Shown piece after piece: positions 2,960 through 26,529 of a stretch of DNA of 64,000 nucleotides. The position numbers and the translations under genes are program-made. The DNA is from Gammaproteobacteria bacterium (lineage in GTDB: Bacteria > Pseudomonadota > Gammaproteobacteria > CAJXQU01): assembly GCA_965238175.1 (NCBI GenBank), contig CBDEGZ010000003.1:32001-96000 (forward strand), read 5' to 3'. The notes under the pieces are model-generated. The model saw only the letters and a program-made list of their open reading frames with translations. It searched no databases and was not told the origin of the DNA. Within the stretch, counting starts at the first letter, position 1. Each line of letters starts with the position of its first letter.

Positions 2960-3105
2960 CTTAGTAGTACCCTTGAAATTGGCTTGCCAGTGCCCACGGA
3001 CTGCGTTGTGTCTGTGAAAAATAGAACCACTATTTTCAGCAAAACACGCCTTGTCATGAGCATTGTCAAGCTAACTGAATACAACAATATTGACTGGGTA
3101 GAGTA
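2960..3105. repeat. ERIC-like palindromic MITE, partial copy (inner hairpin module plus one terminal repeat)
   Basis: Long imperfect hairpin ttggcttgccagtg...gcgttgtgt...aatag-aacca-ctatt...acacgccttg...cattgtcaagctaa. The end ctgaatacaacaatattgactgggtagagta matches the terminal repeat of the 48162-48404 element. Confidence 0.75.
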
Positions 3106-3150
3106 CTGTTACGCTTGCTGAAAGATGCGACCACTGATAAAGTTCGATGA

Positions 3151-4233
<1,083 letters not shown>

Positions 4234-4241
4234 ATCATGGC

Positions 4242-4281
4242 TGTCTATGTTGTTCGCGTACTAGTAGCGATGACATAGACA
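4242..4281 (+). other. Intergenic stem-loop between mreB and mreC
   Basis: tgtctatgttgttcgc...gcgatgacatagaca imperfect inverted repeat, no U-tract. Confidence 0.45.
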
Positions 4282-4314
4282 AGAAAGACAATAAGGATTC
4301 CGAGTAAGTTAAAG

Positions 4315-5178
4315 ATGAAACCACTCTTTTCAAAACATCTGTTTTTGGGGGCACGATTATTCCTTTGTGTTTTGCTATCGATTGTCTTAATGACAATCGA
4401 TCGTAAGGTTGATTATCTTGAAAGTGTCCGCAGTCACCTTTCATCTATTATTTACCCAGTTCAATATTTGGTCAATCTACCCTTGAAATTTGGAGATTGG
4501 ATGTCTGTATCGTTTGATACTCGTGAGAACTTATTGAAAGAGAATGAAAAGTTAAAAGCTCAGAATCTTTTACTAAAAACACATACACATAAATATCAGT
4601 CGTTAGTCTTGGAAAATCAACGGTTACGAGGTTTGATAGAAGCACCTATTCGCCAGGGTGAGCGAGTACTTGTTGCAGATGTTATGGGAGTAGAGATGGA
4701 TAGTACTACTCGTAAATTTGTTTTGAATAAAGGGTCAAAACAAGGCGTTTTTCTTGGACAACCTATTATTGATTCTCAGGGAATTATGGGGCAAATAGTC
4801 CATGTGGGACAAGCTTCTAGTACAGGGATGATGGTTACTGATGAAGAGCATGCCGTGCCGGTCGAGGTTATTCGTAGTGGTATTCGTGCGATTGCTACCG
4901 GCGAAAGTGTTAATGCTGGAATAAGGTTGGATTATGTGCCTCCCGAATCAGATGTTAAAGAAGGTGATTTGTTAGTTTCTACAGGTATTGGTGGTCATTT
5001 TCCCAAGGGCTACCCAGTAGGGACAGTCAAAAAAGTTACTCTACATCCCGGAGACAGTTTTATGAAGGTTAAAGTTACACCGGTTGCGAATTTGACGAAA
5101 ACCAGAGAGGTGTTACTCATTTGGCCTGGAATTTCAGAGGCTGAACAAACTGAAACTGGCAAGGTAGCTAGGAAGTAA
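4315..5178 (+). CDS. mreC: Rod shape-determining protein MreC
   Basis: N-terminal TM, coiled coil ENQRLRGL, STGIGGHFPKGYPVG; operon position. Confidence 0.96.
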   Translation: MKPLFSKHLFLGARLFLCVLLSIVLMTIDRKVDYLESVRSHLSSIIYPVQYLVNLPLKFGDWMSVSFDTRENLLKENEKLKAQNLLLKTHTHKYQSLVLENQRLRGLIEAPIRQGERVLVADVMGVEMDSTTRKFVLNKGSKQGVFLGQPIIDSQGIMGQIVHVGQASSTGMMVTDEEHAVPVEVIRSGIRAIATGESVNAGIRLDYVPPESDVKEGDLLVSTGIGGHFPKGYPVGTVKKVTLHPGDSFMKVKVTPVANLTKTREVLLIWPGISEAEQTETGKVARK

Positions 5179-5189
5179 TAAGAATTCCC

Positions 5190-5672
5190 ATGACCAACCA
5201 TAATAGCTATTTGATCATATTGTGGACAATATTTGTTGCGTTTTTACTCGCAGCAATGCCACTTCCAGAGTGGATTTCTCACGGGAGACCAGCATGGGTG
5301 GCAATGGTGGTCATTTATTGGTGTATGGCGCTGCCTCAACGAGTAAGTATTGGAACTGCCTGGATTTCGGGACTATTAATGGATGTTCTGCAAGGCTCAT
5401 TATTAGGCCAACATGCGATCGGACTGTCGATTATTGCCTATGTCACGGTCAAGCTACACTTACAAATAAGACAACATCCCTTATATCAACAAGCATTATT
5501 CATAGGCCTTCTGATTTCTGTCTATCTCTGCCTTGTTGTATGGGTAAATGGCATTATTGGTAGACCACCACAATCTTGGTCGTTTTTGATGCCAGTGTTA
5601 ACCAGTATGCTCCTTTGGCCATGGTTATTTGTTATTTTGCGCGATATTCGACGCAGTACTCAGGTCTCATAA
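5190..5672 (+). CDS. mreD: Rod shape-determining protein MreD
   Basis: Hydrophobic 160 aa, RPAW...IYW, GLLMDVLQGSLLGQHA. Confidence 0.95.
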   Translation: MTNHNSYLIILWTIFVAFLLAAMPLPEWISHGRPAWVAMVVIYWCMALPQRVSIGTAWISGLLMDVLQGSLLGQHAIGLSIIAYVTVKLHLQIRQHPLYQQALFIGLLISVYLCLVVWVNGIIGRPPQSWSFLMPVLTSMLLWPWLFVILRDIRRSTQVS

Positions 5673-5691
5673 GATACTACTCCTATAAAAC

Positions 5692-7539
5692 ATGTCCCGA
5701 CTGATACTGAAAAATATCGGCCGTGAAAATCAGATATTTTCCCACCGCGTAATTATCTCATTGATTTTTATGGGATTATTATTTGGTTTTCTAGCTTATC
5801 GTATCGCTGATTTACAAGTAGTACAGCATGATCACTTTACTACCAGATCGAAAGATAATCGTGTGAAAATTCTACCAATAACACCGCCTAGAGGGCTGAT
5901 TTTTAGTCGGGATGGAGTGCTATTAGCGGAAAATATTCCAACATTTAGTTTAGAAGTGATCCCTGAAAAAGCCGGTGATATTGATGAGTTAATTGTTAAT
6001 CTGAATAGCATTATTGGTCTTAGCGGGGAGGAGATCCAACGTTTTAAAAAAGAAATAAAGCGGAAACGGCAATTTGAAAACATTCCGATCAAATATAAAC
6101 TGAGTGAAGATGAAATAGCCCGTTTTTCAGTCAATCAATATCGCTTCCCTGGGGTTGAAGTGACAACACGATTAGTTCGCCATTACCCATATGGTGATGA
6201 TTTTGTGCACATGCTTGGTTACGTGGGTCGCATCAACGAAAAAGAAGAGAAACGATTAGACAAAGCAAATTACAGTGCAACAACTCATATTGGTAAAACT
6301 GGAATTGAAAAATCCTATGAACCACAGCTGCATGGTTTGGTAGGTTACCAACAGGTAGAAATAAATGCTCAGGGTCGAGTTGTACAAATACTTGATCGAC
6401 AACCTCCTTTGCCAGGTCAAGATCTTTATTTGACGATTGATACGCGCCTACAGTCCATAGCTGCTGATGCACTAGGCCAACGACGCGGAGCTGTCGTTGC
6501 GATTGATCCTAATACAGGAGCTGTGTTGGCGATGGTAAGCTATCCCAGTTACAATCCAAACTGGTTTGTTAATGGGATTAGTACGGATCGTTATCAAAAA
6601 TTAAGTCAGTCTTCAAACAGGCCTTTATTTAATCGCGCCTTACAGGGGCAATACCCTCCGGGATCAACAATCAAGCCTTTCATAGCAATGGCTGCGCGTT
6701 ATTATGGTGTCCGAGATGAGCATGATCATACACATTGCCCTGGCTGGTTTAGCTTACCAGGTAGCACTCATCGATATCGTTGCTGGAATAAAACGGGACA
6801 CGGGGGAGTTAATTTACAAAGATCTATTATTGAATCCTGTGATGTATTTTATTACGAGCTTGCACAGACCTTGGGTATCGATAAAATACACAACTACCTT
6901 CAAGGCTTTGGTCTCGGTAAAGTTTCGGGTGTTGATCTATCTAGTGAAGCACAAGGTTTGTTGCCATCAAGTGAGTGGAAATTGAGAACCAAAGATTCCG
7001 CCTGGTACCCTGGTGAAACCTTGATTACAGGAATTGGTCAAGGTTATATGTTAACGACTCCTTTTCAGTTAGCTTCTGCTACTGCAACCCTGAGTATGGA
7101 TGGTCATCGAGTTGTTCCGCGGCTCGTTGGACAAATGGAAGATCCGGCAACAGGGAAATCCGGTGATCTATTATCAGAACTGCCGACAAAAGTTGTAAAA
7201 GCTGAAGAAGGTGATTGGCGCATAATTAAACAAGCTATGAGAGAGGTTGTTTTGGGCAAAAGAGGCACTGCTCGAAAAGTTGGAGCAGGTGCTTATTATG
7301 AGTTTGCGGGGAAAACGGGAACATCGCAGGTTTTTGGACTGAAACAGATTGCCGAAGAAAATGCTGATAAGGATGAGATCCCAGAGCGTCTGAGAGATCA
7401 TGCTTTGTTTATTGCTTTTGCTCCGATAAAAGATCCGGTTATTGCCGTTGCAGTTGTTGTCGAAAATGGTGGAAGTGGTGGTCGAACCGCGGGGCCCGTT
7501 GCAAGGAAATTACTCGATTATTACATGGATAATAATTAA
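5692..7539 (+). CDS. mrdA: Penicillin-binding protein 2
   Basis: PPGSTIK (SxxK), SCD, KTGT motifs; after mreD. Confidence 0.96.
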   Translation: MSRLILKNIGRENQIFSHRVIISLIFMGLLFGFLAYRIADLQVVQHDHFTTRSKDNRVKILPITPPRGLIFSRDGVLLAENIPTFSLEVIPEKAGDIDELIVNLNSIIGLSGEEIQRFKKEIKRKRQFENIPIKYKLSEDEIARFSVNQYRFPGVEVTTRLVRHYPYGDDFVHMLGYVGRINEKEEKRLDKANYSATTHIGKTGIEKSYEPQLHGLVGYQQVEINAQGRVVQILDRQPPLPGQDLYLTIDTRLQSIAADALGQRRGAVVAIDPNTGAVLAMVSYPSYNPNWFVNGISTDRYQKLSQSSNRPLFNRALQGQYPPGSTIKPFIAMAARYYGVRDEHDHTHCPGWFSLPGSTHRYRCWNKTGHGGVNLQRSIIESCDVFYYELAQTLGIDKIHNYLQGFGLGKVSGVDLSSEAQGLLPSSEWKLRTKDSAWYPGETLITGIGQGYMLTTPFQLASATATLSMDGHRVVPRLVGQMEDPATGKSGDLLSELPTKVVKAEEGDWRIIKQAMREVVLGKRGTARKVGAGAYYEFAGKTGTSQVFGLKQIAEENADKDEIPERLRDHALFIAFAPIKDPVIAVAVVVENGGSGGRTAGPVARKLLDYYMDNN

Positions 7540-7545
7540 TTCATT

Positions 7546-8640
7546 ATGGTATTACTAAAAAATACTCTGCCAGAAATTCATATTGATGTCCCGTTACTGA
7601 TTGAGTTATTACTTCTTTGTGGTGTTGGATTACTGATCCTCTATAGTGCGGCAGATCAAAAAATGGATATCGTGATACGCCAGTCAGTTCGTCTTGGAAT
7701 AGGCCTGACAGGTATGCTCATCCTTGCACAAATTCCAATGCGCACCCTTATGTGGTGGGCTCCCTGGATCTTTGGTTTAGGATTGTTAATGCTGATCGCA
7801 GTAATGTTCGTCGGGCATATTGGTAAAGGTGCGCAACGTTGGTTAGATCTGAAATTCTTAACGTTTCAACCATCGGAAATTATGAAAATTGCTGTGCCTC
7901 TAATGGTTGCCTGGTACTTAAATGACAAACAGACACCATCTAAGTTAAATAATATATTTATTGGTTTGGTGATCATCATTGTGCCGACTATCTTGATCGC
8001 AAGACAACCCGATTTGGGCACAGCTATCCTGATCGCAGCTTCAGGAGGGTTTGTATTATTCTTATCTGGATTACGCTGGCGACTCATTACGCTTGCTGCA
8101 GTTTTAGGAATGATCGCAGCACCATTGCTTTGGTATGGGATGAAAGATTACCAGAAGCAACGTGTACTGACATTTTTTGATCCTGGTTCTGATCCGCTAG
8201 GTGCAGGTTATCATATAATTCAATCTAAAATCGCCGTCGGTTCAGGAGGACTTTTCGGCAAAGGTTGGCTAAACGGTACACAATCACAGCTGGGGTTTTT
8301 ACCTGAGCGGACCACAGACTTTATTTTTGCAGTTTTTTGCGAGGAGTTCGGTTTTTTAGGCGTTGTCGCGTTGATAGGTCTTTACTGTCTTATAATCTTA
8401 CGTTGCTTATATATGGCCAAACAAGCGCAAGGCACATTTTCGCGTCTGGTTGCAGGTAGCCTTGCGCTTACTTTTTTTACCTATGTATTTGTCAATATGG
8501 GAATGGTGACCGGTCAATTACCTGTTGTCGGTGTACCATTACCCTTGATCAGTTACGGCGGAACATCAATCGTTACCTTGTTGCTAGGTTTTGGTTTGAT
8601 CATGTCTGCATATAGCCACCGAGAACTTATGTCGAGATAA
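7546..8640 (+). CDS. rodA: Rod shape-determining SEDS protein RodA
   Basis: GAQRW, FQPSEIMK, QPDLGT, TDFIF, LPLISYGGTS. Confidence 0.96.
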   Translation: MVLLKNTLPEIHIDVPLLIELLLLCGVGLLILYSAADQKMDIVIRQSVRLGIGLTGMLILAQIPMRTLMWWAPWIFGLGLLMLIAVMFVGHIGKGAQRWLDLKFLTFQPSEIMKIAVPLMVAWYLNDKQTPSKLNNIFIGLVIIIVPTILIARQPDLGTAILIAASGGFVLFLSGLRWRLITLAAVLGMIAAPLLWYGMKDYQKQRVLTFFDPGSDPLGAGYHIIQSKIAVGSGGLFGKGWLNGTQSQLGFLPERTTDFIFAVFCEEFGFLGVVALIGLYCLIILRCLYMAKQAQGTFSRLVAGSLALTFFTYVFVNMGMVTGQLPVVGVPLPLISYGGTSIVTLLLGFGLIMSAYSHRELMSR

Positions 8641-8643
8641 TTT

Positions 8644-9753
8644 ATGTCATACCCAAACCACTTGAAAATGGAACCACTATCCTCGGCATGCACTGCCTTA
8701 TTGCACAACGACTTGGACATGCTGAAATTTGTTTTTCCAAGTGGTCTGGCTATAGGTGTGTTACATAAATTTTTGATTGCTATTTTATTCTTTTTGATTT
8801 CTTCAACAGCTTATGGGGCTGAATTAAATCAAGCAGAACAGAAAAAATTTATTCAGGAAATGGTCAATGAGCACAGTTTCGATAAGCAAGCTCTTGAGCG
8901 TATATTTACAAAAGTGGAGTTACTTGATTATGTTTTAGAAGTAATACAGAAGCCCGCTGAAAAATCAAAAGAGTGGCATGAATATCGAAAAATCTTCTTA
9001 ACACAAGAACGTATCGACAAAGGTGTTTTGTTTTGGCAAGAAAACCGTGATTTGTTAATGGAAGTAGAAAAAGAATATGGCGTTCCTCGCGAAATGATTG
9101 TCGCGATTATTGGAGTGGAAACCTACTATGGAAAATTTAAAGGTAAATATCGTGTCATCGATTCTTTAGCGACACTGGCATTTAATTACCCTAAGCGAGC
9201 GAAATTTTTTCGAAATGAATTAAAGCAGTTTTTGCTTTTCACGCGCAGGTTAAAAATGGATCCATTTTCCCGCATGGGATCTTACGCTGGCGCTATGGGA
9301 ATGCCGCAATTTATGCCGAGTAGCTTTCAGGCTTATGCAATAGATTTTGATCGCGATGATCAAATCAATATTTGGGATAACAAAGCGGATATCTTCGGCA
9401 GTGTAGCGAATTATTTTAAGCGTCATGGCTGGAAAACCGGCGAGCCTGTCGCGGTGCCGACCTGGGTTAAAAATAATGCTAGGCTAGAAAAATTTATTGA
9501 AAAAGGACTTAAACCAACCATTCCATTTGATGAGCTGACAAAGTCTGGCATTCAGACAAAAAGAAATATCGATGGGAATCCTACAAGTAGCCTGCTTGAA
9601 TACAAACAGAAAAATGGTAAGGATTATTGGGTGATCTTCCAGAATTTTTATACGATTACGCGCTATAACCATAGTCCACTCTATGGCATGGCCGTTTATC
9701 AACTCTCTGAGGAGATCAAAGAAGCATACATCCAGTTGGTGCTGATCAAATAA
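8644..9753 (+). CDS. mltB: Lytic murein transglycosylase B (true start probably downstream, e.g. GTG 8758)
   Basis: AIIGVETYYG, GSYAGAMGMPQFMPSS, ITRYNHS. Confidence 0.92.
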   Translation: MSYPNHLKMEPLSSACTALLHNDLDMLKFVFPSGLAIGVLHKFLIAILFFLISSTAYGAELNQAEQKKFIQEMVNEHSFDKQALERIFTKVELLDYVLEVIQKPAEKSKEWHEYRKIFLTQERIDKGVLFWQENRDLLMEVEKEYGVPREMIVAIIGVETYYGKFKGKYRVIDSLATLAFNYPKRAKFFRNELKQFLLFTRRLKMDPFSRMGSYAGAMGMPQFMPSSFQAYAIDFDRDDQINIWDNKADIFGSVANYFKRHGWKTGEPVAVPTWVKNNARLEKFIEKGLKPTIPFDELTKSGIQTKRNIDGNPTSSLLEYKQKNGKDYWVIFQNFYTITRYNHSPLYGMAVYQLSEEIKEAYIQLVLIK

Positions 9754-10664
9754 TGGAACGTCTTTTTGTAAAGTTTTTGATCTGCTTTTTTATAGGCCTT
9801 TCATTAAATGGTTGCGGATCGACTAAGAAGGTTTTTTACCCAACCAGCAAACCCGATCCGGCGATAGATTTATCAAAGATCCCCGATGCAGTTCCTCGAC
9901 ATGAACCAAAAAGTCGTTACGGTAACCCAAAATCGTATGTGGTTTTTGGTCAACGTTATTACACAATGAGCTCAGCTAAAGGTTTCTCTGAAACTGGTGT
10001 TGCTTCTTGGTATGGCCCTAATTTTCATGGCAAAAGAACCTCAAGCCAGGAAGTGTATGACATGAACCAAATGACGGCAGCACATAAAACCATTCCTATT
10101 CCAAGTTATGTCGAAGTGACAAATTTACGTAATGGAAGAAGAATTGTAGTCCGCGTAAATGATCGAGGGCCATTTCATGATAATCGCATTATCGATCTGT
10201 CTTACGTTGCAGCGGCTAAGTTAGATATTGTGAAAGCTGGTACAGGTATGGTTGAAATTCGAGTGATCGATCCCGCTAATCCACATGCTCATCGTCAAAA
10301 ATCAAAACAACCTTCTAACCAAACCTCTGTTCAAATTCATCGTCGGCTTCCTCCCTTGGAACAAACTCAACCACAAGCACCTCCGTCACGCACTAGCGTG
10401 ACTCAGATTCCAGCAGAAAAACAATTATTTATACAACTGGGCGCATTTTCTGAATTAACTAATGCACAGAATTTCAGAAACCGTATTCAAAACAGCCTCA
10501 GCAAAACTTCAAGTACTATTGTCTCAATTGCGACGCTTCCTGTTCAAGGTAAACCATTATACAAGGTCAGAATTGGGCCATTAGCAGATATTGAAACTAG
10601 CGATCGTGTGGTTAAAGATCTCAATGCAGCTGGCCTCTATGATCATCATGTCCTTTTCCAGTAA
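9753..10664 (+). CDS. rlpA: Septal ring lytic transglycosylase lipoprotein RlpA
   Basis: Lipobox LNGC, GVASWYG, TAAHKT, VNDRGPF, C-terminal SPOR (IQLGAFS). Confidence 0.95.
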   Translation: MERLFVKFLICFFIGLSLNGCGSTKKVFYPTSKPDPAIDLSKIPDAVPRHEPKSRYGNPKSYVVFGQRYYTMSSAKGFSETGVASWYGPNFHGKRTSSQEVYDMNQMTAAHKTIPIPSYVEVTNLRNGRRIVVRVNDRGPFHDNRIIDLSYVAAAKLDIVKAGTGMVEIRVIDPANPHAHRQKSKQPSNQTSVQIHRRLPPLEQTQPQAPPSRTSVTQIPAEKQLFIQLGAFSELTNAQNFRNRIQNSLSKTSSTIVSIATLPVQGKPLYKVRIGPLADIETSDRVVKDLNAAGLYDHHVLFQ

Positions 10665-10674
10665 AATCACGCCC

Positions 10675-11811
10675 ATGAATATAAAATCTGTTTTACCTTT
10701 CTTGTTGTTATGTATCACCACTACTGTACAGGCCGTGATTCTACCCGTACCTGCTGCACCCGATGTTAATGCAAAAGCCTATTTATTGGTCGATGTTTTA
10801 ACAGACAAAGTGTTGGCAGATAGAAATGCTACTGATCGAATTGAACCCGCCAGCCTGACAAAAATAATGACCGTCTATGTCGCTGCACATGAATTACGCG
10901 ATGGCAACATTAGCTTGTCGGATGAAGTACTCGTCAGTAAAAAAGCCTGGCAAATGCAAGGCTCGAAAATGTTCATCGAGGTGGGTGATAAGGTCACCGT
11001 CGAAGAATTATTAATGGGGATTGTGGTGCAGTCTGGTAACGATGCCAGTGTTGCACTCGCTGAGCATATATCAGGTACGGAAGAAGTGTTTGCAGTTTTA
11101 ATGAACCTGCGAGCTCAGGAACTGGGCATGAAAGGAACCAATTTTATCAATGCGACTGGCTGGCCAGACGAGGCACATTATACAACAGCTGAAGATCTGT
11201 ATAAATTAACCAAAGCGATAATCACCGAGTTTCCAGAAGATTATGCACGATATAAAATTAAAGAATATACCTACGGCGGCATAACACAACCAAACCGAAA
11301 CAATCTGCTATGGCGCGATAAGACGGTTGATGGTGTTAAAACTGGTCATACAGAATCAGCTGGGTATTGCCTTGTTTCTTCAGGAGTTCAAAAAGGAACT
11401 AGACTGATTTCTATTGTGCTCGGTTCAGCAACAAAAGATTCCAGAATTGATGCCAGTCAAACACTACTAAATTATGGCTTTCGTTTTTTTGAATCGCATA
11501 CCTTAAAAGAAGCGAACAAATCCTTAACGGAGGTTAAGGTTTGGCTAGGAGCCACTGACATACTCAAACTGGGCATCAAGGAAGATCTGAATGTAATGAT
11601 CCCCAGACGGCAATACGAACATCTGCAAGCTAAAATGGATATTGATGCCCAAATCATGGCGCCTGTCGCGGCTGGCGAAGCGTATGGAACGTTGACAGTA
11701 ACTTTGGAAGATAAAGAAATTGCCAGTATTCCACTCATTGCATTGGAATCGATCGAGAAAGCAGGTTTGGTTAAACAACTAATGGACAAAGCCAAGCTTT
11801 TATTAGAATAA
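10675..11811 (+). CDS. dacA: D-alanyl-D-alanine carboxypeptidase (PBP5/6 family)
   Basis: PASLTK, SGNDA, KTGHT; ATG 10675 chosen because it begins the signal peptide. Confidence 0.9.
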   Translation: MNIKSVLPFLLLCITTTVQAVILPVPAAPDVNAKAYLLVDVLTDKVLADRNATDRIEPASLTKIMTVYVAAHELRDGNISLSDEVLVSKKAWQMQGSKMFIEVGDKVTVEELLMGIVVQSGNDASVALAEHISGTEEVFAVLMNLRAQELGMKGTNFINATGWPDEAHYTTAEDLYKLTKAIITEFPEDYARYKIKEYTYGGITQPNRNNLLWRDKTVDGVKTGHTESAGYCLVSSGVQKGTRLISIVLGSATKDSRIDASQTLLNYGFRFFESHTLKEANKSLTEVKVWLGATDILKLGIKEDLNVMIPRRQYEHLQAKMDIDAQIMAPVAAGEAYGTLTVTLEDKEIASIPLIALESIEKAGLVKQLMDKAKLLLE

Positions 11812-11828
11812 AAAGCGACTGAGAAAAA

Positions 11829-12689
11829 ATGTCAGATTCAATTTGTTACTTAAACGGTGAATTTCAACCGCTTGCGAAAGCGGTGGTTCCTGTACTTGAT
11901 CGCGGATTTATCTTTGGTGATGGTATCTACGAAATGATCCCGGTATTTAGTGGGCATGCATTTCGTTTGATTGAGCATCTACAACGCTTGGCAAATAGTC
12001 TCAAGGCGATTTACATTAGCAATCCCAACACAATTAATGAGTGGACAAATTTGATCGATACAATGATCAAAAAGAATGGTGCAGGTCATCAGGCGATTTA
12101 TTTGCAAATAACCCGCGGCGTTGCCGTTCGTGATCATGCTTTTCCAGAAAAATCTGAACCAACCGTTTTTATCATGAGTAATCCTTTACCTGAGTCGCAA
12201 AAAGCACATCCGGTTTCAGCGATTGTCTTGCAGGATCCTCGTTGGAATAGTTGTGACATTAAAGCGATCTCTTTGTTACCCAATGTTTTACTACGACAAC
12301 AAGCAAGAGAAATGGGTGCATATGAGGCAATTTTGATCCGAGATGGACAACTAACCGAAGGCGCTGCAAGTAATGTTTTTGTTATCAAAGACGGGGTGAT
12401 AAAAACACCTCCAAAGGGACCAAGACTATTACCCGGGATCACACGTGATCTGGTGGTTGAGTTGTTACAAAAAGAATCTCGCCCATGTGAGGAAACACAA
12501 ATTACTGAAGTCGAACTTCGTAACGCCGATGAGCTCTGGGTAAGTAGCTCGACAAAAGAAATTTTGCCTGTCACGCAACTGGATGGAAAACCTGTCGGGA
12601 CAGGTGAGCCTGGTTTGATCTGGCAGAGTACAGTCGATTTATATCAATCTTTCAAAGATAGCTTCACTGGAACGGACGCGGCCGCATAA
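11829..12689 (+). CDS. dat: D-amino-acid aminotransferase (PLP class IV)
   Basis: [24 protein letters not shown]; usual position after dacA. Confidence 0.85.
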
Positions 12690-12693
12690 CGAT

Positions 12694-13047
12694 ATGGAAA
12701 TCTATAAAGAATTTAGTATCGAAGCTGCACATCGTTTACCTAATCTGGCGGATAATCATAAGTGTTCTCGTTTACATGGACACTCATTTTTGATCAGAAT
12801 TTGTGTCGAAGGTGAAGTTGATCCTGACACAGGTTGGATTATCGATTTTGCCGAAATTAAAAAGGCCTATAAGCCAGTTTTTGATCAACTTGATCATCAC
12901 TATCTAAATGAGATTGAAGGCTTAGAAAATCCAACCAGCGAAAATCTGGCGAAATGGATCTGGGATCGTTTAAAACCAGAATTAACCTTGTTATCAAAAG
13001 TGATCATAAAAGAAACTTGTACCTCCGGCTGTGTTTATACCGGCTGA
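12694..13047 (+). CDS. queD: 6-carboxytetrahydropterin synthase
   Basis: [35 protein letters not shown]. Confidence 0.95.
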
Positions 13048-13077
13048 ACACAACTATACAAAGATTAGGAAACAAAA

Positions 13078-13476
13078 ATGACTAGACAAATCATCAGTAC
13101 TGACAAAGCACCACAAGCAATTGGAACCTATTCACAAGCGGTCAAAGTGGGAACAACGGTTTATCTGTCTGGGCAAATACCCTTAGTGCCCGAAACAATG
13201 GAATTGGTTGAGGGCGATATGCGCGCTCAAATTGTACGCGTGTTTGACAACCTTACTGCCGTGGCCGAAGCGGCGGGTGGCTCATTGGCTGATATTTCAA
13301 AATTGAATATCTTTTTAACCGACTTAAGTCACTTCCCATTAGTTAATGAGGTGATGGCGGAATACTTTGTTCAGCCCTATCCCGCACGAGCTGCAGTAGG
13401 CGTTGCACAATTGCCGAAGGCTTCGCAGGTGGAAATGGATGCCATAATGGAGTTATTAAATATCCAAGATACCTAA
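13078..13476 (+). CDS. ridA: RidA/YjgF family enamine deaminase
   Basis: [27 protein letters not shown]. Confidence 0.9.
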
Positions 13477-13619
13477 GAATGCCGGTCTATAACACATTTG
13501 TTTTCATCCAGTGCATCGTTTTTCCTCCTTACAGGGAGTGGTCATGCGCGTCGTCGTGCCTTGTCCTGAATGAAAACAAACCCACTTTAAATCCTGCATT
13601 CTTAGGTATCTTGGGTATA
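13459..13619. repeat. ERIC-like MITE with terminal inverted repeats, overlapping the ridA stop codon
   Basis: atatccaagatacctaagaatgc ... gcattcttaggtatcttgggtat, plus inner pair tttgttttcatccag/ctgaatgaaaacaaa. Confidence 0.85.
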
Positions 13620-13644
13620 AGACGGGACAACGTTTGATCACGTT

Positions 13645-15753
13645 ATGACCGAGCAACGGTCAAAAACCCCCATAACCACTTTAAAAGGTGTTGGCCTTCG
13701 TGTCGCTGAACGCCTGGAAAAGATTGGGATAAAAGAAATCCAGGATCTCCTTTTTCATCTTCCATTACGCTACCAGGATCGTACGCGAATTATACCGATT
13801 GGTTCGGCGTTACATGGAAGCCAAATAGCCGTTCAAGGCGAAATAGAATTATCTCAAGTCAAGTTTGGTCGACGGCGTTCTCTACTATGTCGGATAAGTG
13901 ATGGAACTGGAGCACTAACCTTACGTTTTTTTCATTTCTCCGCAGCACAACAAAAAAATCTCTCTAAAGGATTGCGTATTATTTGTTTTGGTGAAATTCG
14001 TAGTGGTCCAACAACATTAGAAATGGTGCATCCAGAATATCGAGTGGTTGGAGAAGATGAAAAAATCCTACAGATGGAAGATTCGTTGACACCGGTTTAC
14101 CCAACGACGGAAGGTTTGCATCAGATCAGTTTACGGAAGCTAACCGATCAAGTTCTCTCATTGTTAGCGGCTGATCAAAATAATTTTCTCGAAGATTATT
14201 TTTTGAAGTTGGAGAAAATAAAACCAAAACAAAAAATTCTCAACGATTGGGGGCTTTCAGAGGCAATTCAGTTTGTGCATCGGCCACCACCAGAAGCAGA
14301 AGTTAATCAGCTTATTACCGGGCAACATTCTGCTCAAAAAAGATTGGTGTTTGAAGAATTACTTGCGCATCAGTTAAGTAAGAAATTAAGTCGTAAAGAA
14401 TTTAAAGATCAAAAGGCCCCTTCCTTACAAGCTAATGGAATATTAGCGAAGGAATTACTCACCTCATTACCCTTTGAACCAACGTCAGCACAACAACGTG
14501 TGACGAAAGAAATTCAGAATGACTTGATCAAAAGTCAACCAATGTCACGACTGGTTCAGGGTGATGTTGGTTCAGGAAAAACATTGGTTGCAGCGATGGC
14601 AGCATTGCAGGCGATAGAAGCTGGATTTCAAGTTGCGATTATGGCACCGACTGAATTATTAGCTGAGCAACATTTAAAAATATTTCAACAATGGTTGAAG
14701 CCTTTGAATATTCCAATTATCTGGATTTCTGGCAAGCTTAAAGCCGCAGAAAAAAGACAAGCTTTGTTAGACATTTCAGAGACTGATAAATGTGTTGTGA
14801 TCGGTACGCACGCGTTGTTTCAACAAAGTGTTGAATTCAAAAAATTAGGGTTGAGTATTGTTGATGAACAACATCGTTTTGGCGTGCATCAACGTTTAGC
14901 ACTCCGAGAAAAAGGCAAGGTGGATGGCAATACCACACATCAATTAATCATGACGGCTACGCCGATCCCGCGTACGCTGGCTATGACTGCCTATGCCGAT
15001 CTTGATGTATCTGTTATAGATGAATTACCCGCAGGTCGGCAACCGGTGACAACATCGGTTATTCCGGAACTTCGACGTGAAGAAATCATTGAACGAATTT
15101 CGGATATTTGTCATCAAGGTCGGCAGGTATATTGGGTCTGTACTTTAATAGAAGAATCAGAAACTTTGCAATGCCAGACCGCAACCGAAACCGCAAGTTT
15201 GTTAGCGGAAAGTTTGGATGGTTTAAAAGTGGGATTGATCCATGGTCGTTTAGATAAAGATCAAAAAAATACTGTTATGCAAACATTTCACTCTGGTGAA
15301 ATTGATCTGCTTGTTGCAACAACGGTGATTGAGGTTGGGGTTGATGTACCAAATGCAAGCTTAATGATCATCGAAAATGCCGAGCGATTAGGGCTTGCAC
15401 AATTGCATCAGTTGCGCGGTCGAGTCGGACGTGGTTCGCGTAAAAGTGATTGCGTATTGATGTATCATTCTCCTCTTTCTGATCATGGCAAAGCGCGACT
15501 GGCGATTATGCGAGAAACCAATGATGGTTTTAAAATATCACAAAAAGATCTCGAGTTGCGCGGGCCAGGTGAGTTTCTCGGAACACGGCAAGCGGGTTCA
15601 ATGCGTTTTAAAATAGCCGATTTAATGCGTGATCAGGATCTGGTTCCCGAGGTTGAAAAAACAGCCGTGCAAATAATGAAAACAAATACGGAAATCATAG
15701 AACCTTTGATCCAACGTTGGATGATCCATGGTATTGACTACGCGGATGTTTAA
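13645..15753 (+). CDS. recG: ATP-dependent DNA helicase RecG
   Basis: QGDVGSGKT, DEQHRFGV, MTATPIPRT, QLRGRVGRG, DLELRGPGE. Confidence 0.98.
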   Translation: MTEQRSKTPITTLKGVGLRVAERLEKIGIKEIQDLLFHLPLRYQDRTRIIPIGSALHGSQIAVQGEIELSQVKFGRRRSLLCRISDGTGALTLRFFHFSAAQQKNLSKGLRIICFGEIRSGPTTLEMVHPEYRVVGEDEKILQMEDSLTPVYPTTEGLHQISLRKLTDQVLSLLAADQNNFLEDYFLKLEKIKPKQKILNDWGLSEAIQFVHRPPPEAEVNQLITGQHSAQKRLVFEELLAHQLSKKLSRKEFKDQKAPSLQANGILAKELLTSLPFEPTSAQQRVTKEIQNDLIKSQPMSRLVQGDVGSGKTLVAAMAALQAIEAGFQVAIMAPTELLAEQHLKIFQQWLKPLNIPIIWISGKLKAAEKRQALLDISETDKCVVIGTHALFQQSVEFKKLGLSIVDEQHRFGVHQRLALREKGKVDGNTTHQLIMTATPIPRTLAMTAYADLDVSVIDELPAGRQPVTTSVIPELRREEIIERISDICHQGRQVYWVCTLIEESETLQCQTATETASLLAESLDGLKVGLIHGRLDKDQKNTVMQTFHSGEIDLLVATTVIEVGVDVPNASLMIIENAERLGLAQLHQLRGRVGRGSRKSDCVLMYHSPLSDHGKARLAIMRETNDGFKISQKDLELRGPGEFLGTRQAGSMRFKIADLMRDQDLVPEVEKTAVQIMKTNTEIIEPLIQRWMIHGIDYADV

Positions 15754-15756
15754 AGA

Positions 15757-16638
15757 ATGACTAAAGCATGTCTAAGCTTAAAGGAAAGGTTAGTCCAATA
15801 TGCGCTGCTGATGAGGTTGGATAAGCCTGTTGGTATTTATCTTTTGTTGTGGCCAACTTTATGGGCAATCTGGATTGCTTCCGAAGGTAAGCCAGATCCA
15901 TTAGTTTTATTTGTATTTGTTGCTGGCGTAGTTTTGATGCGATCAGCTGGATGTGTCATCAATGATTTTTTTGATCGAAAAATTGATGTTCATGTCAAAA
16001 GGACCGCAGCTCGACCGATTGCAGCAGGTCGAGTGTCGGGCAAAGAAGCAATCATTTTATTTATGCTGCTGTGTGTAATCGCATTCAGCCTGGTATTATT
16101 AACGAATAGCCTGACAATCAAACTTTCTTTTGTAGCTGTTTTGCTCGCGGTGTCCTATCCTTTAATGAAACGTTTTACCAATCTTCCACAATTTTATCTT
16201 GGTCTTGCCTTTGGTTGGGCAATACCGATGTCCTTTGCCGCGATTCAGAATACGGTTCCAAAAGTTGCATGGATTTTGTTGCTGGCGACGATGATTTGGG
16301 CGGTGATCTACGACACGATGTATGCGATGGTGGATTATGAAGATGATCTAAAAATTGGCGTCAAATCAACAGCAATATTATTTGGTGAACATGATCGAAT
16401 GATTATTGGGATCCTGCAATTTTTGATGTTGGCCCTGCTTTTTTGGGCAGGAACGATGATCAGCTTGGACTGGCCCTTACATTTGTCGTTATTGATCGCA
16501 GCGGTGCTGATGTTAAAACACCGAGTGATGATCCGTGATAGAGATAACGATAAATGTTTTCAGGCGTTTAAACAAAACCACTGGATAGGAGTTGTTATTT
16601 TGTTAGGGATTATTTTTAGTTATATAAATAAACAGTAG
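15757..16638 (+). CDS. ubiA: 4-hydroxybenzoate polyprenyltransferase
   Basis: MRLDKPVG, GCVINDFFDR, YDTMYAMVD..DD.KIGVKSTA. Confidence 0.96.
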   Translation: MTKACLSLKERLVQYALLMRLDKPVGIYLLLWPTLWAIWIASEGKPDPLVLFVFVAGVVLMRSAGCVINDFFDRKIDVHVKRTAARPIAAGRVSGKEAIILFMLLCVIAFSLVLLTNSLTIKLSFVAVLLAVSYPLMKRFTNLPQFYLGLAFGWAIPMSFAAIQNTVPKVAWILLLATMIWAVIYDTMYAMVDYEDDLKIGVKSTAILFGEHDRMIIGILQFLMLALLFWAGTMISLDWPLHLSLLIAAVLMLKHRVMIRDRDNDKCFQAFKQNHWIGVVILLGIIFSYINKQ

Positions 16639-22240: not shown

Positions 22241-22470
22241 CAGATCATATATGGACTCCACCACCCTATAGTCGTAGATTGGTACCTACAAAAACCAAAG
22301 GAGTCCAACCATGAATAATCGACCAATCATTTCGCTCGACTTAGCAAAAAAGTGACCCCAAGTTGTAAAGTTAATAAAACAAGGCAAGCTGTTAACTAAT
22401 TAAGGCCATGTCACCTATAAAGGTCAAAGAATTACTCGCCAAAAGTTCCCCTTATATCGTTGGAAAATGT
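22241..22470 (+). mobile_element. IS110-family (IS1111-type) left end and decayed transposase 5' fragment
   Basis: cagatcatatATGGACTCC at 22241-22259, inverted ggagtcca/RBS at 22300, ATG 22311 MNNRPIISLDLAKK*PQV...QGKLL, then frameshifted KAMSPIKVKELLAKSSPYIVG (IS110 IGIDLAK...PCxVxME pattern). Confidence 0.75.
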
Positions 22471-22575
22471 ACTAAAATTTTCATAATGTAAACAATTTTA
22501 AATACATGGAATAAATTTTAGAAATTCATTCCCACCTGGTTTATCTCTGATAGCGAGTAAGGTAATGTTTATTAC

Positions 22576-23622
22576 ATGACTACTCAAAACACAGATCCCA
22601 CATCAAACAATTCTTTTTTTAAGATCATTTTTTTCAATATTTGTATTCTCTCTTTTTTGGTTCTTATTCTTTTGGGGATCTTCGAAGCATATTTAAGAAT
22701 CACTATTCCAGAATTATCTAGCGAATCAATTTTCACTTATACGCTGGACACTAAACGATATAAATTAATGAAGAAAGATGCCAGCATTATTGCATGGGGT
22801 GAAGAGCTACGCACGAATGAATTAGGGTTTAGAGATAATCAGACAGCTGTTCCTGATAAACGATCAGACGAATTCCGAGTGGTTGTTTTGGGGGATTCGT
22901 TTACGGTTTCTGCTGGGGTCAATTTTGACTCTATCTATACGACATTGTTAGAAAAAAATCTGCAAAAACAATTTAAGAATATCGAAGTGATGAATCTTGC
23001 GGTAGCTGGTTATAACATTGTTCAATATGAAATGGTACTGAATGAGGTTGCCCTGGATCTAAGACCTGATCTAATATTAGTCTCGGTTTTTCCAAGCAAT
23101 GATTTTAGTATGACAATCTACGATAATAATTTTCTCATTGCTAGAGGAGAAGATGTTAAACAAGAAGAGATATTCTGGTTTAGAAAATCCTATGTTTACC
23201 GGGCCTTTTTGTGGCGAGTTAAGAGCAAACTTAAAAGTCTTTTTGTTAGACCTGTTAAAAATGAATCCCAAATTGCTGAAGCGAGGAAAGAAAGTGAGCG
23301 TGGTTGGATGGAGAACTTAGCTGCATTAAATCGGATCCTAAAAACTGCACAAGAAAAGAATATTCCCACCGTGGTTACTTTGTTGCCTGATAGCTGGAGT
23401 TATGAGGCACAACATAAATCAATTGATCGAATTAAAACATATTTATCAAAGAGAAATGTTGAGCCTGTTGTCTTACTATATCCTTTTATCGAAAGCGGAA
23501 TTAAAGAACCAGAGCTTCGGGTAAACCTGCTCGACAGTCATCCGAACAAACAATATAACATTCTGGTTTCCGAAACTTTGACACCATATCTAGGCAAGAT
23601 CATTTCTGAGAACATCAATTAA
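22576..23622 (+). CDS. Membrane-anchored SGNH/GDSL-family hydrolase/acyltransferase
   Basis: N-terminal TM; blocks LGDSFT, NLAVAGY, SND, DSHPN. Confidence 0.88.
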   Translation: MTTQNTDPTSNNSFFKIIFFNICILSFLVLILLGIFEAYLRITIPELSSESIFTYTLDTKRYKLMKKDASIIAWGEELRTNELGFRDNQTAVPDKRSDEFRVVVLGDSFTVSAGVNFDSIYTTLLEKNLQKQFKNIEVMNLAVAGYNIVQYEMVLNEVALDLRPDLILVSVFPSNDFSMTIYDNNFLIARGEDVKQEEIFWFRKSYVYRAFLWRVKSKLKSLFVRPVKNESQIAEARKESERGWMENLAALNRILKTAQEKNIPTVVTLLPDSWSYEAQHKSIDRIKTYLSKRNVEPVVLLYPFIESGIKEPELRVNLLDSHPNKQYNILVSETLTPYLGKIISENIN

Positions 23623-23751
23623 AATGTACAATCAAAAAAAAACTATTTTTTGGCCAAAGTTAAATTGCGTTAACCTTTGTTGCACACCAAATTATTACAA
23701 AAATTTCTGTGATAAACTCGTCTTACATTGGAAGTGAACAAGAGGATCTGC

Positions 23752-25596
23752 ATGGAAGTATATATTCTTGGTTTATCGGCTTATTATCATGATAGCGCAG
23801 CAGCGTTAATCAAAGATGGTAAAATTGTCGCAGCAGCACAAGAGGAACGTTTTACCCGTAAAAAACATGATCCAAGCTTTCCAGATAATGCAATCAAATA
23901 TTGTTTAGAAGAGGCAAGTATTCAACTGTCAGATGTTGATCATGTCATATTTTATGACAAGCCTCTGATCAAATTTGAGCGACTGATCGAAACTTATTTA
24001 AGTTACGCACCAAAAGGGCTACGATCATTTATCACTGCAATGCCTGTTTGGTTGAAAGAAAAACTTTATCTTAAAACGGTTCTTAAAAAAGAGTTATCCA
24101 AAACGGGCAATATCCCTCAAAAAGAATTACCTAATTTATTATTTAATGAGCACCATAAATCACATGCGGCGTCTGCATTTTATCCGAGTCCTTTCGAGAA
24201 TGCAGCGGTTATGTGTCTTGATGGTGTTGGTGAATGGGCAACGTCTTCTGTTTGGTTAGGTGATGGAAGAGAATTGACTCCACAATGGGAGATCGATTTT
24301 CCACATTCACTCGGTTTACTCTACTCAGCATTTACTTACTACACTGGTTTTCGGGTCAATTCTGGTGAGTACAAACTCATGGGACTGGCTCCTTATGGAG
24401 AGCCAAAATACGTCGATTTGATCCTCGATAATTTGATCGATGTTAAAGAAGACGGTAGCTATCGCCTGAACATGGAATATTTTGATTATGCCATTGGCTT
24501 GACCATGACGAATCAAAAATTTAGTGACTTATTCGGCGTACCCGTCAGAGCTCCAGAAAGTCCACTTAGTCAACATGAAATGGATATTGCGCGATCAATT
24601 CAGGTCGTGACTGAAGACATCGTTTTAAAACTCGCAAGATCGGTGCATAAAGAATTAGGCGTTGATAACTTATGTCTTGCCGGTGGCGTCGCTTTGAACT
24701 GCGTATCTAATGGACGACTATTGCGAGAAGGACCTTTTAAAGAAATCTGGATCCAACCTGCAGCAGGCGATGCGGGTGGTGCAATCGGTGCGGCACTTTC
24801 AGTTTGGTATGAATATTTAGGGAATGAACGCACCGTTGATGAAAATGATTCTATGCAGGGTTCTTATTTAGGACCCCGCTATAGCAATAATGAAATCAAA
24901 GAATCGCTGAATGCATTGGGTGCTAATTATCGTTATCTGGATAGCGATGAATTAATGCCTGAATTAGCGGAAATTCTGGATAATGGAAATGTTATTGGTT
25001 GGATGCAGGGCAGAATGGAGTTTGGCCCACGAGCATTAGGCGGTCGCTCAATTATTGGAGATCCAAGAAATACTCAAATGCAATCAACGATGAATCTTAA
25101 GATCAAATATCGTGAGTCTTTTCGTCCGTTTGCACCTTCGATACTAGCGGATCGTGTTTCAGACTATTTTGAGCATGAGGCGACAAGTCCTTATATGTTG
25201 ATGGTTGCGCCGGTTGCTAAAAATCTACGGGTCAAAATGACAGAAGAAGAGGAGAAATTATTTGGCGTCGAAAAACTGAAAATACCACGCTCAGAACTCC
25301 CGGCAATTACCCATGTAGATTATTCTGCACGGATCCAAACTGTACATGAGCATACAAATCCTGGTTATCATCAACTGTTAACCGCGTTTGATCAGCGCAC
25401 GGGCTGCCCTGTTTTGGTCAATACATCTTTCAATGTGCGCGGTGAACCGATCGTTAATACCCCAGAAGATGCTTATCGTTGTTTTATGCGTACTGAAATG
25501 GACTGCCTGGTAATTGAAAACTACATCTTACTAAAAAAAGATCAGCCTGAAATGGAAAAAGATGACTCCTGGAAAGAAGAATTCGAGCTGGATTGA
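23752..25596 (+). CDS. O-carbamoyltransferase (NodU/CmcH/SxtI family)
   Basis: YYHDSAAAL, QEERFTRKKH, EHHKSHAAS, GEYKLMGLAPYG, AGGVALNC, GRMEFGPRALG.RS, RESFRPFAP, NTSFNVRGEPIV; AGAGGA RBS before ATG 23752. Confidence 0.95.
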   Translation: MEVYILGLSAYYHDSAAALIKDGKIVAAAQEERFTRKKHDPSFPDNAIKYCLEEASIQLSDVDHVIFYDKPLIKFERLIETYLSYAPKGLRSFITAMPVWLKEKLYLKTVLKKELSKTGNIPQKELPNLLFNEHHKSHAASAFYPSPFENAAVMCLDGVGEWATSSVWLGDGRELTPQWEIDFPHSLGLLYSAFTYYTGFRVNSGEYKLMGLAPYGEPKYVDLILDNLIDVKEDGSYRLNMEYFDYAIGLTMTNQKFSDLFGVPVRAPESPLSQHEMDIARSIQVVTEDIVLKLARSVHKELGVDNLCLAGGVALNCVSNGRLLREGPFKEIWIQPAAGDAGGAIGAALSVWYEYLGNERTVDENDSMQGSYLGPRYSNNEIKESLNALGANYRYLDSDELMPELAEILDNGNVIGWMQGRMEFGPRALGGRSIIGDPRNTQMQSTMNLKIKYRESFRPFAPSILADRVSDYFEHEATSPYMLMVAPVAKNLRVKMTEEEEKLFGVEKLKIPRSELPAITHVDYSARIQTVHEHTNPGYHQLLTAFDQRTGCPVLVNTSFNVRGEPIVNTPEDAYRCFMRTEMDCLVIENYILLKKDQPEMEKDDSWKEEFELD

Positions 25597-25609
25597 GGAG
25601 TAAAAAAAT

Positions 25610-26017
25610 ATGACACATGTAATACCAGAATTAGATAGTAAAGGATTACGCCAATTTGGTTTGATGGCAGCAGGATTTTTTGCCGGTATATTTGGTTTGA
25701 TTTTGCCTTGGCTTGCAGATGCAAATATTCCAACCTGGCCATGGGTACTGGCAGCTATTTTTGTGGCCTGGGCTTTACTCGCTCCAGCGACAATAGAGCC
25801 GCTATATAAAGTTTGGATGAAAGTCGCTATGTTTATAGGCGGCATTATCAATAAGATTGTGCTTTCGATCGCCTTCTTTGGCGTATTACTTCCAATTGGA
25901 TTGATATTACGTTTGACAGGCAACAAACCAATAAAAAATGAACTAGATGAAAATATTAAAAGTTATCGTGTACTGAGTGTTTTGGACAAACGCGAAAAAA
26001 TGGAGAAACCTTTCTAA
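25610..26017 (+). CDS. SxtJ-family membrane protein
   Basis: LRQFGL, P...L.PLYKVWM...GG..NKIVL...PIG, ends MEKPF; follows the carbamoyltransferase; GAGGAG RBS. Confidence 0.85.
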   Translation: MTHVIPELDSKGLRQFGLMAAGFFAGIFGLILPWLADANIPTWPWVLAAIFVAWALLAPATIEPLYKVWMKVAMFIGGIINKIVLSIAFFGVLLPIGLILRLTGNKPIKNELDENIKSYRVLSVLDKREKMEKPF

Positions 26018-26169
26018 TGATAGATCTAATACAAGACTTATGGGCGTTTATGAAGGAACGAAAAAAATTCTGGATGGCTCCATTAATAATGGTTTTATTA
26101 CTGCTAGGTGCATTGATTGTTTTTGTTCAAGGCTCAGCGGTCGCGCCTTTCATATACACCTTATTTTAG
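26017..26169 (+). CDS. DUF5989/SxtK-family 50-aa membrane micropeptide (below ORF-track cutoff)
   Basis: ATG overlaps the upstream stop (TAATG); MIDLIQDLWAFMKERKKFWMAPLIMVLLLLGALIVFVQGSAVAPFIYTLF*. Confidence 0.9.
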   Translation: MIDLIQDLWAFMKERKKFWMAPLIMVLLLLGALIVFVQGSAVAPFIYTLF

Positions 26170-26274: not shown

Positions 26275-26529
26275 GATATCCAAACCACTAGCAAATGCAG
26301 ATTTCAGCATGCCCAAGCTGTTATGTAGCAAGGCAGCATACGCCGAGAATGGTGTTCATTTTCAAGTATGCTAACACGGTGGTGTGACACTTGGCCTCGG
26401 CTTGTGAGTAAAGCTATCGGTCGCTGCGTTGTGTCTTTTGAAAAGGAACCACCCTTTCCTGCAGGACACGCCTTACCAGCAAGACCGATAGCTTCACTGA
26501 AAACTGCATTTGTTAGTAGTTTGGGTATA
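26275..26529. repeat. ERIC-like MITE with two internal hairpin modules, upstream of deaD
   Basis: Terminal repeats of about 33 bp gatatccaaaccactagcaaatgcagatttcag / ctgaaaactgcatttgttagtagtttgggtata; inner caaggc...gagaatgg..cattttc and gcgttgtgtc..aaagg-aacca-ccctttc..gacacgcctt modules. Confidence 0.85.

Follow-up and report, generated by a model that had tools for sequence, protein, structure and literature searches.

A 64,000-nucleotide stretch of DNA (hereafter the window) was analysed from a Gammaproteobacteria bacterium of the CAJXQU01 lineage (assembly GCA_965238175.1, contig CBDEGZ010000003.1, positions 32,001 to 96,000 of the forward strand). As called on the plus strand, four genes spanning 22576-26169 may constitute a membrane module for carbamoyl transfer. 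They encode an SGNH/GDSL-fold enzyme of 348 amino acid residues (22576-23622), an O-carbamoyltransferase (CT) of the NodU/CmcH/TobZ/SxtI type with 613 residues (23755-25596), a small membrane protein of the SxtJ family with 135 residues (25610-26017), and a DUF5989/SxtK micropeptide of 50 residues (26017-26169; hereafter K). The open reading frame (ORF) of the CT (23728-25596) opens at a TTG codon at 23728, and the ATG codon at 23755 is the probable start. The gap between the SGNH gene and the CT gene is about 105-132 nucleotides. Only 13 nucleotides, carrying GGAG, lie between the CT and SxtJ genes, and the stop codon of SxtJ overlaps with the start codon of K as TAATG. A sequence-only reading of this DNA had described four co-oriented genes, the last three tightly coupled, and had assigned them to these four families. 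The ORFs at these coordinates agree with this arrangement, and the assignments were borne out by Pfam matches and, for the SGNH protein, by the fold of an AlphaFold2 (AF2) model.

K ends in the hexapeptide F-I-Y-T-L-F (26149-26166, plus strand), which follows A-P and is directly followed by the stop codon. The codon of Tyr47 is TAC at 26155-26157. K matches the Pfam family PF19451 over residues 3-50 with 93 bits against a cut-off of 27, and consists of a basic amphipathic N-terminus (KERKK), a single membrane helix, and an uncharged tail of 13 residues. Its homologues form 7943 clusters at 90% identity and 3311 clusters at 50%. K stays 60-80% identical across phyla, and the C-terminal motif is its most conserved part. 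A scan of species-representative genomes gave at least 598 pattern matches, at least 550 of which were confirmed, and the best 80 loci were studied. K ends in F-x-Y-x-x-F in all 80 of these loci (FIYTLF in 65), with A-P preceding the motif in 79, and the closest homologues end in F-x-Y-x-x-F in 120 of 120 cases. Among 150 cluster representatives, 117 end in the motif and 24 have the motif plus apparent read-through extensions; the remaining nine have altered tails, and the tyrosine is absent in only three, which are apparently frameshifted. Thus, the tyrosine motif is essentially invariant across DUF5989 and located at the exact C-terminus, as the sequence-only reading required. In the whole genome, only 3 of the 17,108 ORFs of at least 40 residues end in F.Y..F, so the tail motif of K is beyond chance in this genome. 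PF.Y..F ends only two ORFs, namely K and the single MBOAT of the genome. A profile of K compared with solved structures gave only DsbB helices with E above 0.1, and a look-up in the ESM Atlas gave no usable match. Long DUF5989 proteins were considered as possible fusions and rejected, as most of them are frameshift products or include the upstream gene read out of frame. Fusions were not counted as evidence because only P0427, a single record, looks like an in-frame SxtJ-K fusion. Judging from P0427, the C-terminus of SxtJ and the N-terminus of K can apparently be joined.

Is K always accompanied by a CT and SxtJ? CT, SxtJ, and K lie together on one strand in 64 of the 80 loci, in the order CT-SxtJ-K in 39 modules, SxtJ-K-CT in 17, and CT-K-SxtJ in 8. 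Complete modules were found in Proteobacteria, Cyanobacteria, Nitrospirota, Bacteroidota, Acidobacteriota, and others, and the loci also include those of Prochlorococcus, Pelagibacteraceae, Trichodesmium, and Nitrospira. The other 16 loci are mostly cut by contig ends, or have SxtJ-K or K without a nearby CT. In one locus (L053), K stands alone. Trichodesmium erythraeum IMS101 (L055, 9575-20149) has SxtJ-K followed by five SGNH paralogues, with no CT within 10 kb. On the pSymB plasmid of Sinorhizobium meliloti 1021 (L101, 4625-8827), a divergent gene for a 442-residue SGNH protein with a weak AlgX match is followed by SxtJ, DUF5989 (ending in FIYTLF), and CT, and the plasmid record is unannotated at the module.

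The relatives were surveyed in 41 genomes, that is, the own genome of the bacterium and 40 related genomes. Ten genomes have K above the cut-off; nine have SxtJ, and all nine of these also have K. The high-scoring CT clade (above 370 bits), to which the CT of the window belongs, is present in eight genomes and lies beside SxtJ/K in all eight. A second CT clade (about 160-175 bits) never adjoins SxtJ/DUF5989 in the 41 genomes searched; the own genome has such a second CT paralogue (C3:524772-525821) with about 168 bits to Carbam_trans_N. Two loci with close CT relatives lie in viral contigs; K is just upstream in one of them, and they are otherwise uninformative. A plasmid-borne CT of Burkholderia glumae was set aside as irrelevant to the module, being located in a polyketide synthase cluster.

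The SGNH neighbours were found by a hidden Markov model (HMM) grown from the window protein, which matches only 5 of the 17,108 ORFs of the 3.35-Mb genome. An SGNH relative was found within 300 bp of 31 of the 64 modules (25 on the same strand and 6 divergent), within 3 kb of 36, and anywhere in the locus for 42. When the Pfam families of 117 immediate neighbours were tallied, Lipase_GDSL_2 came to 24, Lipase_GDSL to 10, and ALGX to 6, and no other family exceeded five. An N-terminal membrane anchor is present in 30 of the 31 module-adjacent SGNH proteins, and the remaining one is truncated at a contig end. In the genus, the three module-bearing genomes have the SGNH orthologue (E about 1e-156) immediately ahead of the CT gene, while it was not found in the four genomes without the module. 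In one relative (G006), the whole block is located away from both flanking genes of the window, in a different genomic context. The co-occurrence, the three gene orders, the different context in this relative, and the joint presence or absence in the genus support the view that the four genes form one unit. Co-occurrence of all four families had been expected from the window; it is strict for CT, SxtJ, and K, but the SGNH gene is only a frequent companion.

The 348-residue SGNH protein has a membrane anchor at around residues 17-36 and the catalytic set of Ser108 (GDS), Gly145, Asn175, and Asp320-x-His322, and S108, G145, N175, D320, and H322 are invariant among 40 homologues. Thus, the description of an N-terminally anchored protein with intact catalytic blocks was correct. 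The Pfam match to Lipase_GDSL_2 (29.2 bits) is below the cut-off of 32.9; most homologues carry the precomputed PF13472 label. An AF2 model with a predicted local distance difference test score (pLDDT) of 92.9 found many GDSL esterases in a fold search (Z 15-22), and this model confirmed the predicted SGNH fold with blocks I, II, III, and V. The best fold match is CgnD (8a2n_A), with Z 22.4 over 246 aligned residues including the N-terminal extension, while the runner-up has Z 16.6 and GDSL esterases score about 16. CgnD was not matched at the sequence level in a profile search. Two short motifs recur in CT-associated SGNH proteins: E-x-x-L-R, which ends the anchor helix and is conserved at the juxtamembrane position of the window protein, and N-x-x-G-[FLW]-R about 20 residues ahead of GDS, corresponding to window residues 80-87 (N-x-x-G-F-R-D). 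The latter is likewise carried by a soluble SGNH protein of Ralstonia. At four loci (L025, L043, L077, and L027), SGNH proteins encoded beside or near the module have 630-750 residues, with an anchor at the N-terminus, TPR repeats at the C-terminus, and the SGNH domain between them. In Lyngbya sp. CCAP 1446/10 (L031, 4107-5630), a 508-residue protein with DUF1574 and a weak DltD-family match is encoded 2 kb upstream of CT-SxtJ-K-SGNH.

The orientation of K and the SGNH protein was predicted from charges. The mean number of Lys and Arg residues in K is 4.6 in the N-terminal flank and 0 in the tail, so that the basic N-terminus is predicted to be inside and the uncharged tail outside. In the SGNH protein, the corresponding values are 2.1 before and 1.2 after the helix, with 1.9 for Asp and Glu after the helix, which favours an N-in, C-out orientation. 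Since the charge bias puts both N-termini inside, the K tail and the SGNH domain would be on the same non-cytoplasmic side, in agreement with what the sequence-only reading had proposed.

The CT matches both Carbam_trans_N (E 2e-126) and Carbam_trans_C (E 5e-75), has the GPRALGGRS motif, and lacks a signal sequence, as expected of the signal-less NodU/CmcH-type enzyme that had been suggested. Among solved structures, it matches NovN (E 3e-93), followed by GdmN and TobZ (1e-79), over nearly the full length. It has the Kae1-like N-domain and the YrdC-like C-domain of the family. Thus, its sequence identifies it as an ATP-dependent O-carbamoyltransferase of the TobZ/NovN/GdmN type. The TobZ-like family makes activated carbamoyl from carbamoyl phosphate and ATP, and TobZ-type enzymes transfer from an enzyme-bound carbamoyl adenylate.

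SxtJ matches PF19588 with 44.7 bits against a cut-off of 24.4 and has two to four membrane segments, so that its earlier description as a small multi-helix SxtJ-like membrane protein is appropriate. Its basic C-terminal tail has the conserved residues R101, G104, and Y119. When 46 and 70 sequences were aligned, F16 and P95 did not vary, and R14, G17, P59, L62, W69, F89, and Y119 were nearly invariant. The AF2 model of the natural in-frame SxtJ-DUF5989 fusion P0427 has pLDDT values of 95-98 over the SxtJ part and 53-61 in the tail, with an overall pLDDT of 83.8 and a predicted template modelling score of 0.51. A fold search with this model gave generic helical hairpins only (Z up to 6.4).

The FXYXXF motif has been published as an acyl-shuttle motif, for example as FIYANF in PatA; in the available part of that source, an acyl-tyrosine intermediate is described on DltX and PatA, from which the group passes to a serine of DltD or PatB (PMC12148441). 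Do the tails of K and the MBOAT proteins resemble each other? In the 41 related genomes, all eight MBOAT tails end in F-[IL]-Y-F-x-F after a helix and a linker of 6-9 residues. The K tail appears to have the same design of a helix, a short linker, and the motif. The own genome has a sole MBOAT of 483 residues that ends in NPFIYFRF; it lies, together with its partner, at C3:3057860-3060484, 3 Mb from the block. The partner gene that follows is AlgJ/AlgX-like with a DTHWN motif, and this MBOAT therefore has its own tail and its own partner. No MBOAT was found within 10 kb in 78 of the 80 loci, and none in 6 of the 10 K-bearing relatives. Thus, the suggestion that no MBOAT is needed nearby proved sound. 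In Nitrospira (L041 and L089), a separate SGNH-MBOAT pair lies 4-8 kb downstream of SxtJ-K.

A tyrosine-bearing micropeptide was also found beside other CT-SGNH pairs. In the available part of a study of Pseudomonas fluorescens WH6, deletion of gvgF (an SxtI-like CT), gvgA (an esterase/lipase), gvgB, or gvgG abolishes the production of 4-formylaminooxyvinylglycine (FVG), and all deletions were complemented (10.1101/080572). There, gvgB is a Lys-rich ORF of 27 residues, and gvgG encodes 47 residues with a transmembrane segment at residues 5-24 directly after the CT (10.1101/080572). The core of many gvg-like clusters is described as gvgA, B, C, and F in the part available of a second source (PMC8064604). 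I found two gvg-like clusters, one on a megaplasmid of Ralstonia solanacearum (L103, 4883-11980) and one in Acinetobacter baumannii (L104, 3165-8998), which encode a heme-oxygenase-like protein, a CT, and a soluble SGNH protein. In both, the SGNH gene is immediately followed by a Lys-rich ORF of 26-39 residues that ends in SIYPLR (KKKKKSQSSIYPLR in Ralstonia, KRKKKKKGGSIYPLR in Acinetobacter). Thus, a tyrosine-bearing micropeptide accompanies the CT-SGNH pair in gvg-like clusters too, without a membrane helix. These peptides probably correspond to GvgB, as their position and the published description suggest. In the Ralstonia cluster, the CT is followed by an ORF of 68 residues with homology to residues 80-125 of SxtJ (hhalign probability 94%, E 1e-7), which comprise the last helix and the tail. 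By its position and the published description, this SxtJ remnant would fit gvgG. In the Acinetobacter cluster, the SGNH gene overlaps the CT gene directly, and unlike in Ralstonia, no SxtJ remnant was found after the CT.

How may the four proteins work together? The cytoplasmic TobZ-like CT would make activated carbamoyl from carbamoyl phosphate and ATP, and SxtJ may hold the CT at the inner membrane via its conserved cytoplasmic tail. K would be a carrier arm. From its motif identity with DltX and PatA, Tyr47 of A-P-F-I-Y-T-L-F-COOH may be loaded with carbamoyl to form an aryl carbamate, a type of compound that can donate carbamoyl to serine hydrolases. The topology and the co-occurrence suggest that K would pass the group to Ser108 of the anchored SGNH enzyme, which would move it to a final acceptor outside the cytoplasmic membrane. 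This carrier-arm relay, from the CT through Tyr47 of K and Ser108 to the acceptor, is the simplest reading. I put at about 0.35 the probability of the explanation as a whole, in which the block is an SxtI-J-K-L-type module for carbamoyl transfer that is complete in itself and moves horizontally, and works by this relay. The leading guess for the acceptor is an envelope polymer, because the window holds no other biosynthetic genes. According to the neighbour tally, most modules sit among unrelated genes. An envelope glycan as the acceptor is suggested by the Nitrospira loci alone. In these loci (L041 and L089, about 3000-16500), SxtJ-K lies in a polysaccharide cluster with a DegT aminotransferase, GT2 and GT4 glycosyltransferases, a polysaccharide deacetylase, and an ATP-grasp protein. 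A complex prediction with the SGNH protein, SxtJ, and DUF5989, run without the CT or controls, scored 0.01 against a mark of 0.32 and speaks neither for nor against the relay.

Several observations weigh against the carrier-arm relay. There is no evident route across the membrane, as the CT would be cytoplasmic and the tyrosine is predicted to be outside. The uncharged 13-residue tail might re-enter the membrane along SxtJ, K might be loaded ahead of post-translational insertion, or a lipid intermediate might carry the carbamoyl group, all of which are speculative. The topologies of K and the SGNH protein come from charge bias alone, and that of SxtJ is ambiguous, since both of its ends are basic and yet AF2 draws three long helices. 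The likeness of K to the acyl-shuttle tails appears to be only at the motif level, and homology is not demonstrable. In an hhalign comparison, K and the MBOAT tails are in register but with E 0.033 and a probability of 1.5%; the residues after the tyrosine are T-L in K versus F-Q/N/R in the MBOATs; and a Pfam scan of K at E up to 0.1 gave DUF5989 only and no DltX, a family whose accession I take to be PF12459. The SGNH partner is also missing from many modules: 33 of the 64 have no SGNH gene within 300 bp and 22 have none anywhere in the locus, and no relative of the SGNH subfamily was found at E up to 1e-5 in 4 of the 10 K-bearing relatives. In sxt and gvg, this set of genes works on soluble small molecules, and the SGNH proteins of the two gvg-like clusters are unanchored. 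As for the activity of such SGNH proteins, SxtL was proposed as a decarbamoylase (PMC2679770, in the part available), and slow hydrolysis of leader peptide was reported for CgnD (PMC10070186, likewise in part). Finally, the sequence-only reading had SxtJ taking the place of the MBOAT. No conserved His, Ser, or Asp was found in the two SxtJ alignments, and a profile comparison with MBOAT gave no similarity (E 0.26); SxtJ is therefore unlikely to be an MBOAT substitute. In view of these results and the one-helix remnant in the gvg-like cluster, this part of the proposal is unsupported, and SxtJ looks like a membrane tether of the CT instead.

The main rival to the relay is direct transfer. The membrane-tethered CT would in this case carbamoylate its final substrate, a metabolite or a lipid-linked sugar, directly at the cytoplasmic face; SxtJ and DUF5989 would anchor, stabilise, or activate the CT, the tail would be structural or gating, and the SGNH enzyme would remove or edit carbamoyl or acyl groups. 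To my knowledge, the characterised relatives TobZ, NovN, and GdmN all act directly on hydroxyl acceptors, and this explanation fits their enzymology. It also agrees with the gathering of the conserved SxtJ residues at the basic, presumably cytoplasmic tail, with the one-helix SxtJ remnant retained after the CT in a gvg-like cluster, with the decarbamoylase proposal for SxtL, and with the modules that have no SGNH gene close by. However, it gives no reason for an invariant A-P-F-I-Y-x-x-F-COOH beyond a membrane helix, and leaves the enrichment of anchored SGNH genes beside the module unexplained. Moreover, an editing enzyme might be dispensable, but the gvgA esterase is essential for FVG in the available part of the WH6 study (10.1101/080572). 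I regard direct transfer as a serious contender that is nevertheless rather unlikely.

The difficulty of membrane crossing would be solved if the carbamoyl group travelled on a lipid. Such a route would resemble the way in which glycans are modified in the periplasm by means of undecaprenyl-phosphate-linked donors and small flippases. The CT would carbamoylate a lipid-linked intermediate inside, SxtJ, perhaps with DUF5989, would flip or present it, and the SGNH enzyme would finish the reaction in the periplasm. SxtJ is indeed small and multi-helix without a catalytic signature, and in Nitrospira SxtJ and K lie among glycosyltransferase, aminotransferase, and deacetylase genes. Yet the neighbour tally shows no lipid-carrier enzyme conserved beside the module, the fold search with the SxtJ-K model gave nothing beyond generic hairpins, and the tyrosine motif would be left unused, all of which makes this route very improbable. 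In a third alternative, K would itself be the end substrate, and the modified tyrosine would serve some function of K, such as membrane regulation, instead of carrying the group onward. That O-carbamoyltransferases modify hydroxyl groups agrees with this, and the extreme conservation of K and its strict linkage with the CT would be accounted for. But the SGNH partner would be left without a role, the tail is predicted to be non-cytoplasmic, and homologous modules belong to small-molecule pathways, so I consider that there is hardly any chance of this being the case.

The genes flanking the block in the window are housekeeping genes, which encode an M3 oligopeptidase, an SH3 protein, DeaD, RuvA, RuvC, and YebC. 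No saxitoxin core genes (sxtA, sxtG, and others) were found near the block in these flanks, as had been noted before. The GC content drops to 0.359 in the segment 22001-24000 over the SGNH gene, compared with about 0.40-0.42 around it, which fits horizontal acquisition of the block. A 37-residue ORF at 23624-23737 spans the gap between the SGNH and CT genes; it is unsupported and probably not a gene. A tentative promoter-like site lies upstream of the SGNH gene (22460-22487, plus strand), although the consensus scan gave fewer sites than in shuffled sequence and the site is weak. A tentative terminator-like hairpin lies downstream of the K gene (26340-26355, plus strand) by consensus scan only.

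The synteny of sxtIJKL, the requirement of gvgF, gvgG, gvgA, and gvgB for FVG, and the guess that small transmembrane proteins assist such CTs are already published. In the literature searched, no paper mentioned DUF5989, none tied SxtK or carbamoyltransferases to DltX or the acyl shuttle, and none dealt with a carbamoyl-tyrosine intermediate in nature. Since 2008, the two small partners of the saxitoxin CT, SxtJ and SxtK, have been entered as 'unknown', and the essential small ORFs of gvg are equally unexplained. The motif link would give SxtJ/SxtK and gvgB/gvgG a testable role, and the hypothesis that K is a tyrosine carrier is plausible. A wider version of the carrier-arm reading is that DUF5989/SxtK and the soluble Lys-rich GvgB-type peptides are the tyrosine carrier arms of a widespread MBOAT-free carbamoyl shuttle, in which an SxtJ-tethered SxtI-type CT would load the tyrosine, an SGNH transferase dedicated to the shuttle would move the group from the tyrosine to the acceptor, and the membrane form in this genome would export carbamoyl to the periplasm. 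Taken as a whole, this wider version is doubtful. If it is true, acyl-tyrosine relays can exist without MBOAT or AT3 proteins, O-carbamoylation has to be added to the modifications known to occur outside the cytoplasm, and acyl-tyrosine shuttling covers a further kind of group, another donor chemistry, and thousands of genomes. If the shuttle is not real, a conserved CT-SxtJ-K membrane complex remains in need of explanation. The families, the strict CT-SxtJ-K linkage, the frequent SGNH linkage, the invariance of the motif, and the independence from any MBOAT are established here.

The block can be compared with four known systems. It has the same four families as sxtI-J-K-L, and the sxt order matches many cyanobacterial loci (CT, SxtJ, DUF5989, and an SGNH protein of 420 residues). 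In the window, by contrast, the SGNH gene is upstream and of a different subfamily (348 residues), there are no saxitoxin core genes, and the module is the widespread non-toxin form, with at least 550 confirmed loci in species-representative genomes. The gvg system resembles the block in combining small ORFs with an SGNH enzyme and an SxtI-like CT, but the two gvg-like clusters have an unanchored SGNH protein and a soluble, Lys-rich tyrosine peptide, and lack DUF5989. The closest structure to the SGNH model is crocagin CgnD, whose cluster also encodes a carbamoyltransferase, CgnI, but CgnD is soluble whereas the SGNH protein of the window is membrane-anchored. With DltB-DltX-DltD and PatA-PatB, the block shares the terminal F-x-Y-x-x-F, separated from a membrane helix by a short linker, and an SGNH partner that is anchored in the membrane and has a Ser nucleophile. 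It differs from them in that the operon has neither an MBOAT nor a catalytic-His protein, the donor is a soluble ATP-dependent CT, and the cargo would be carbamoyl rather than acyl.

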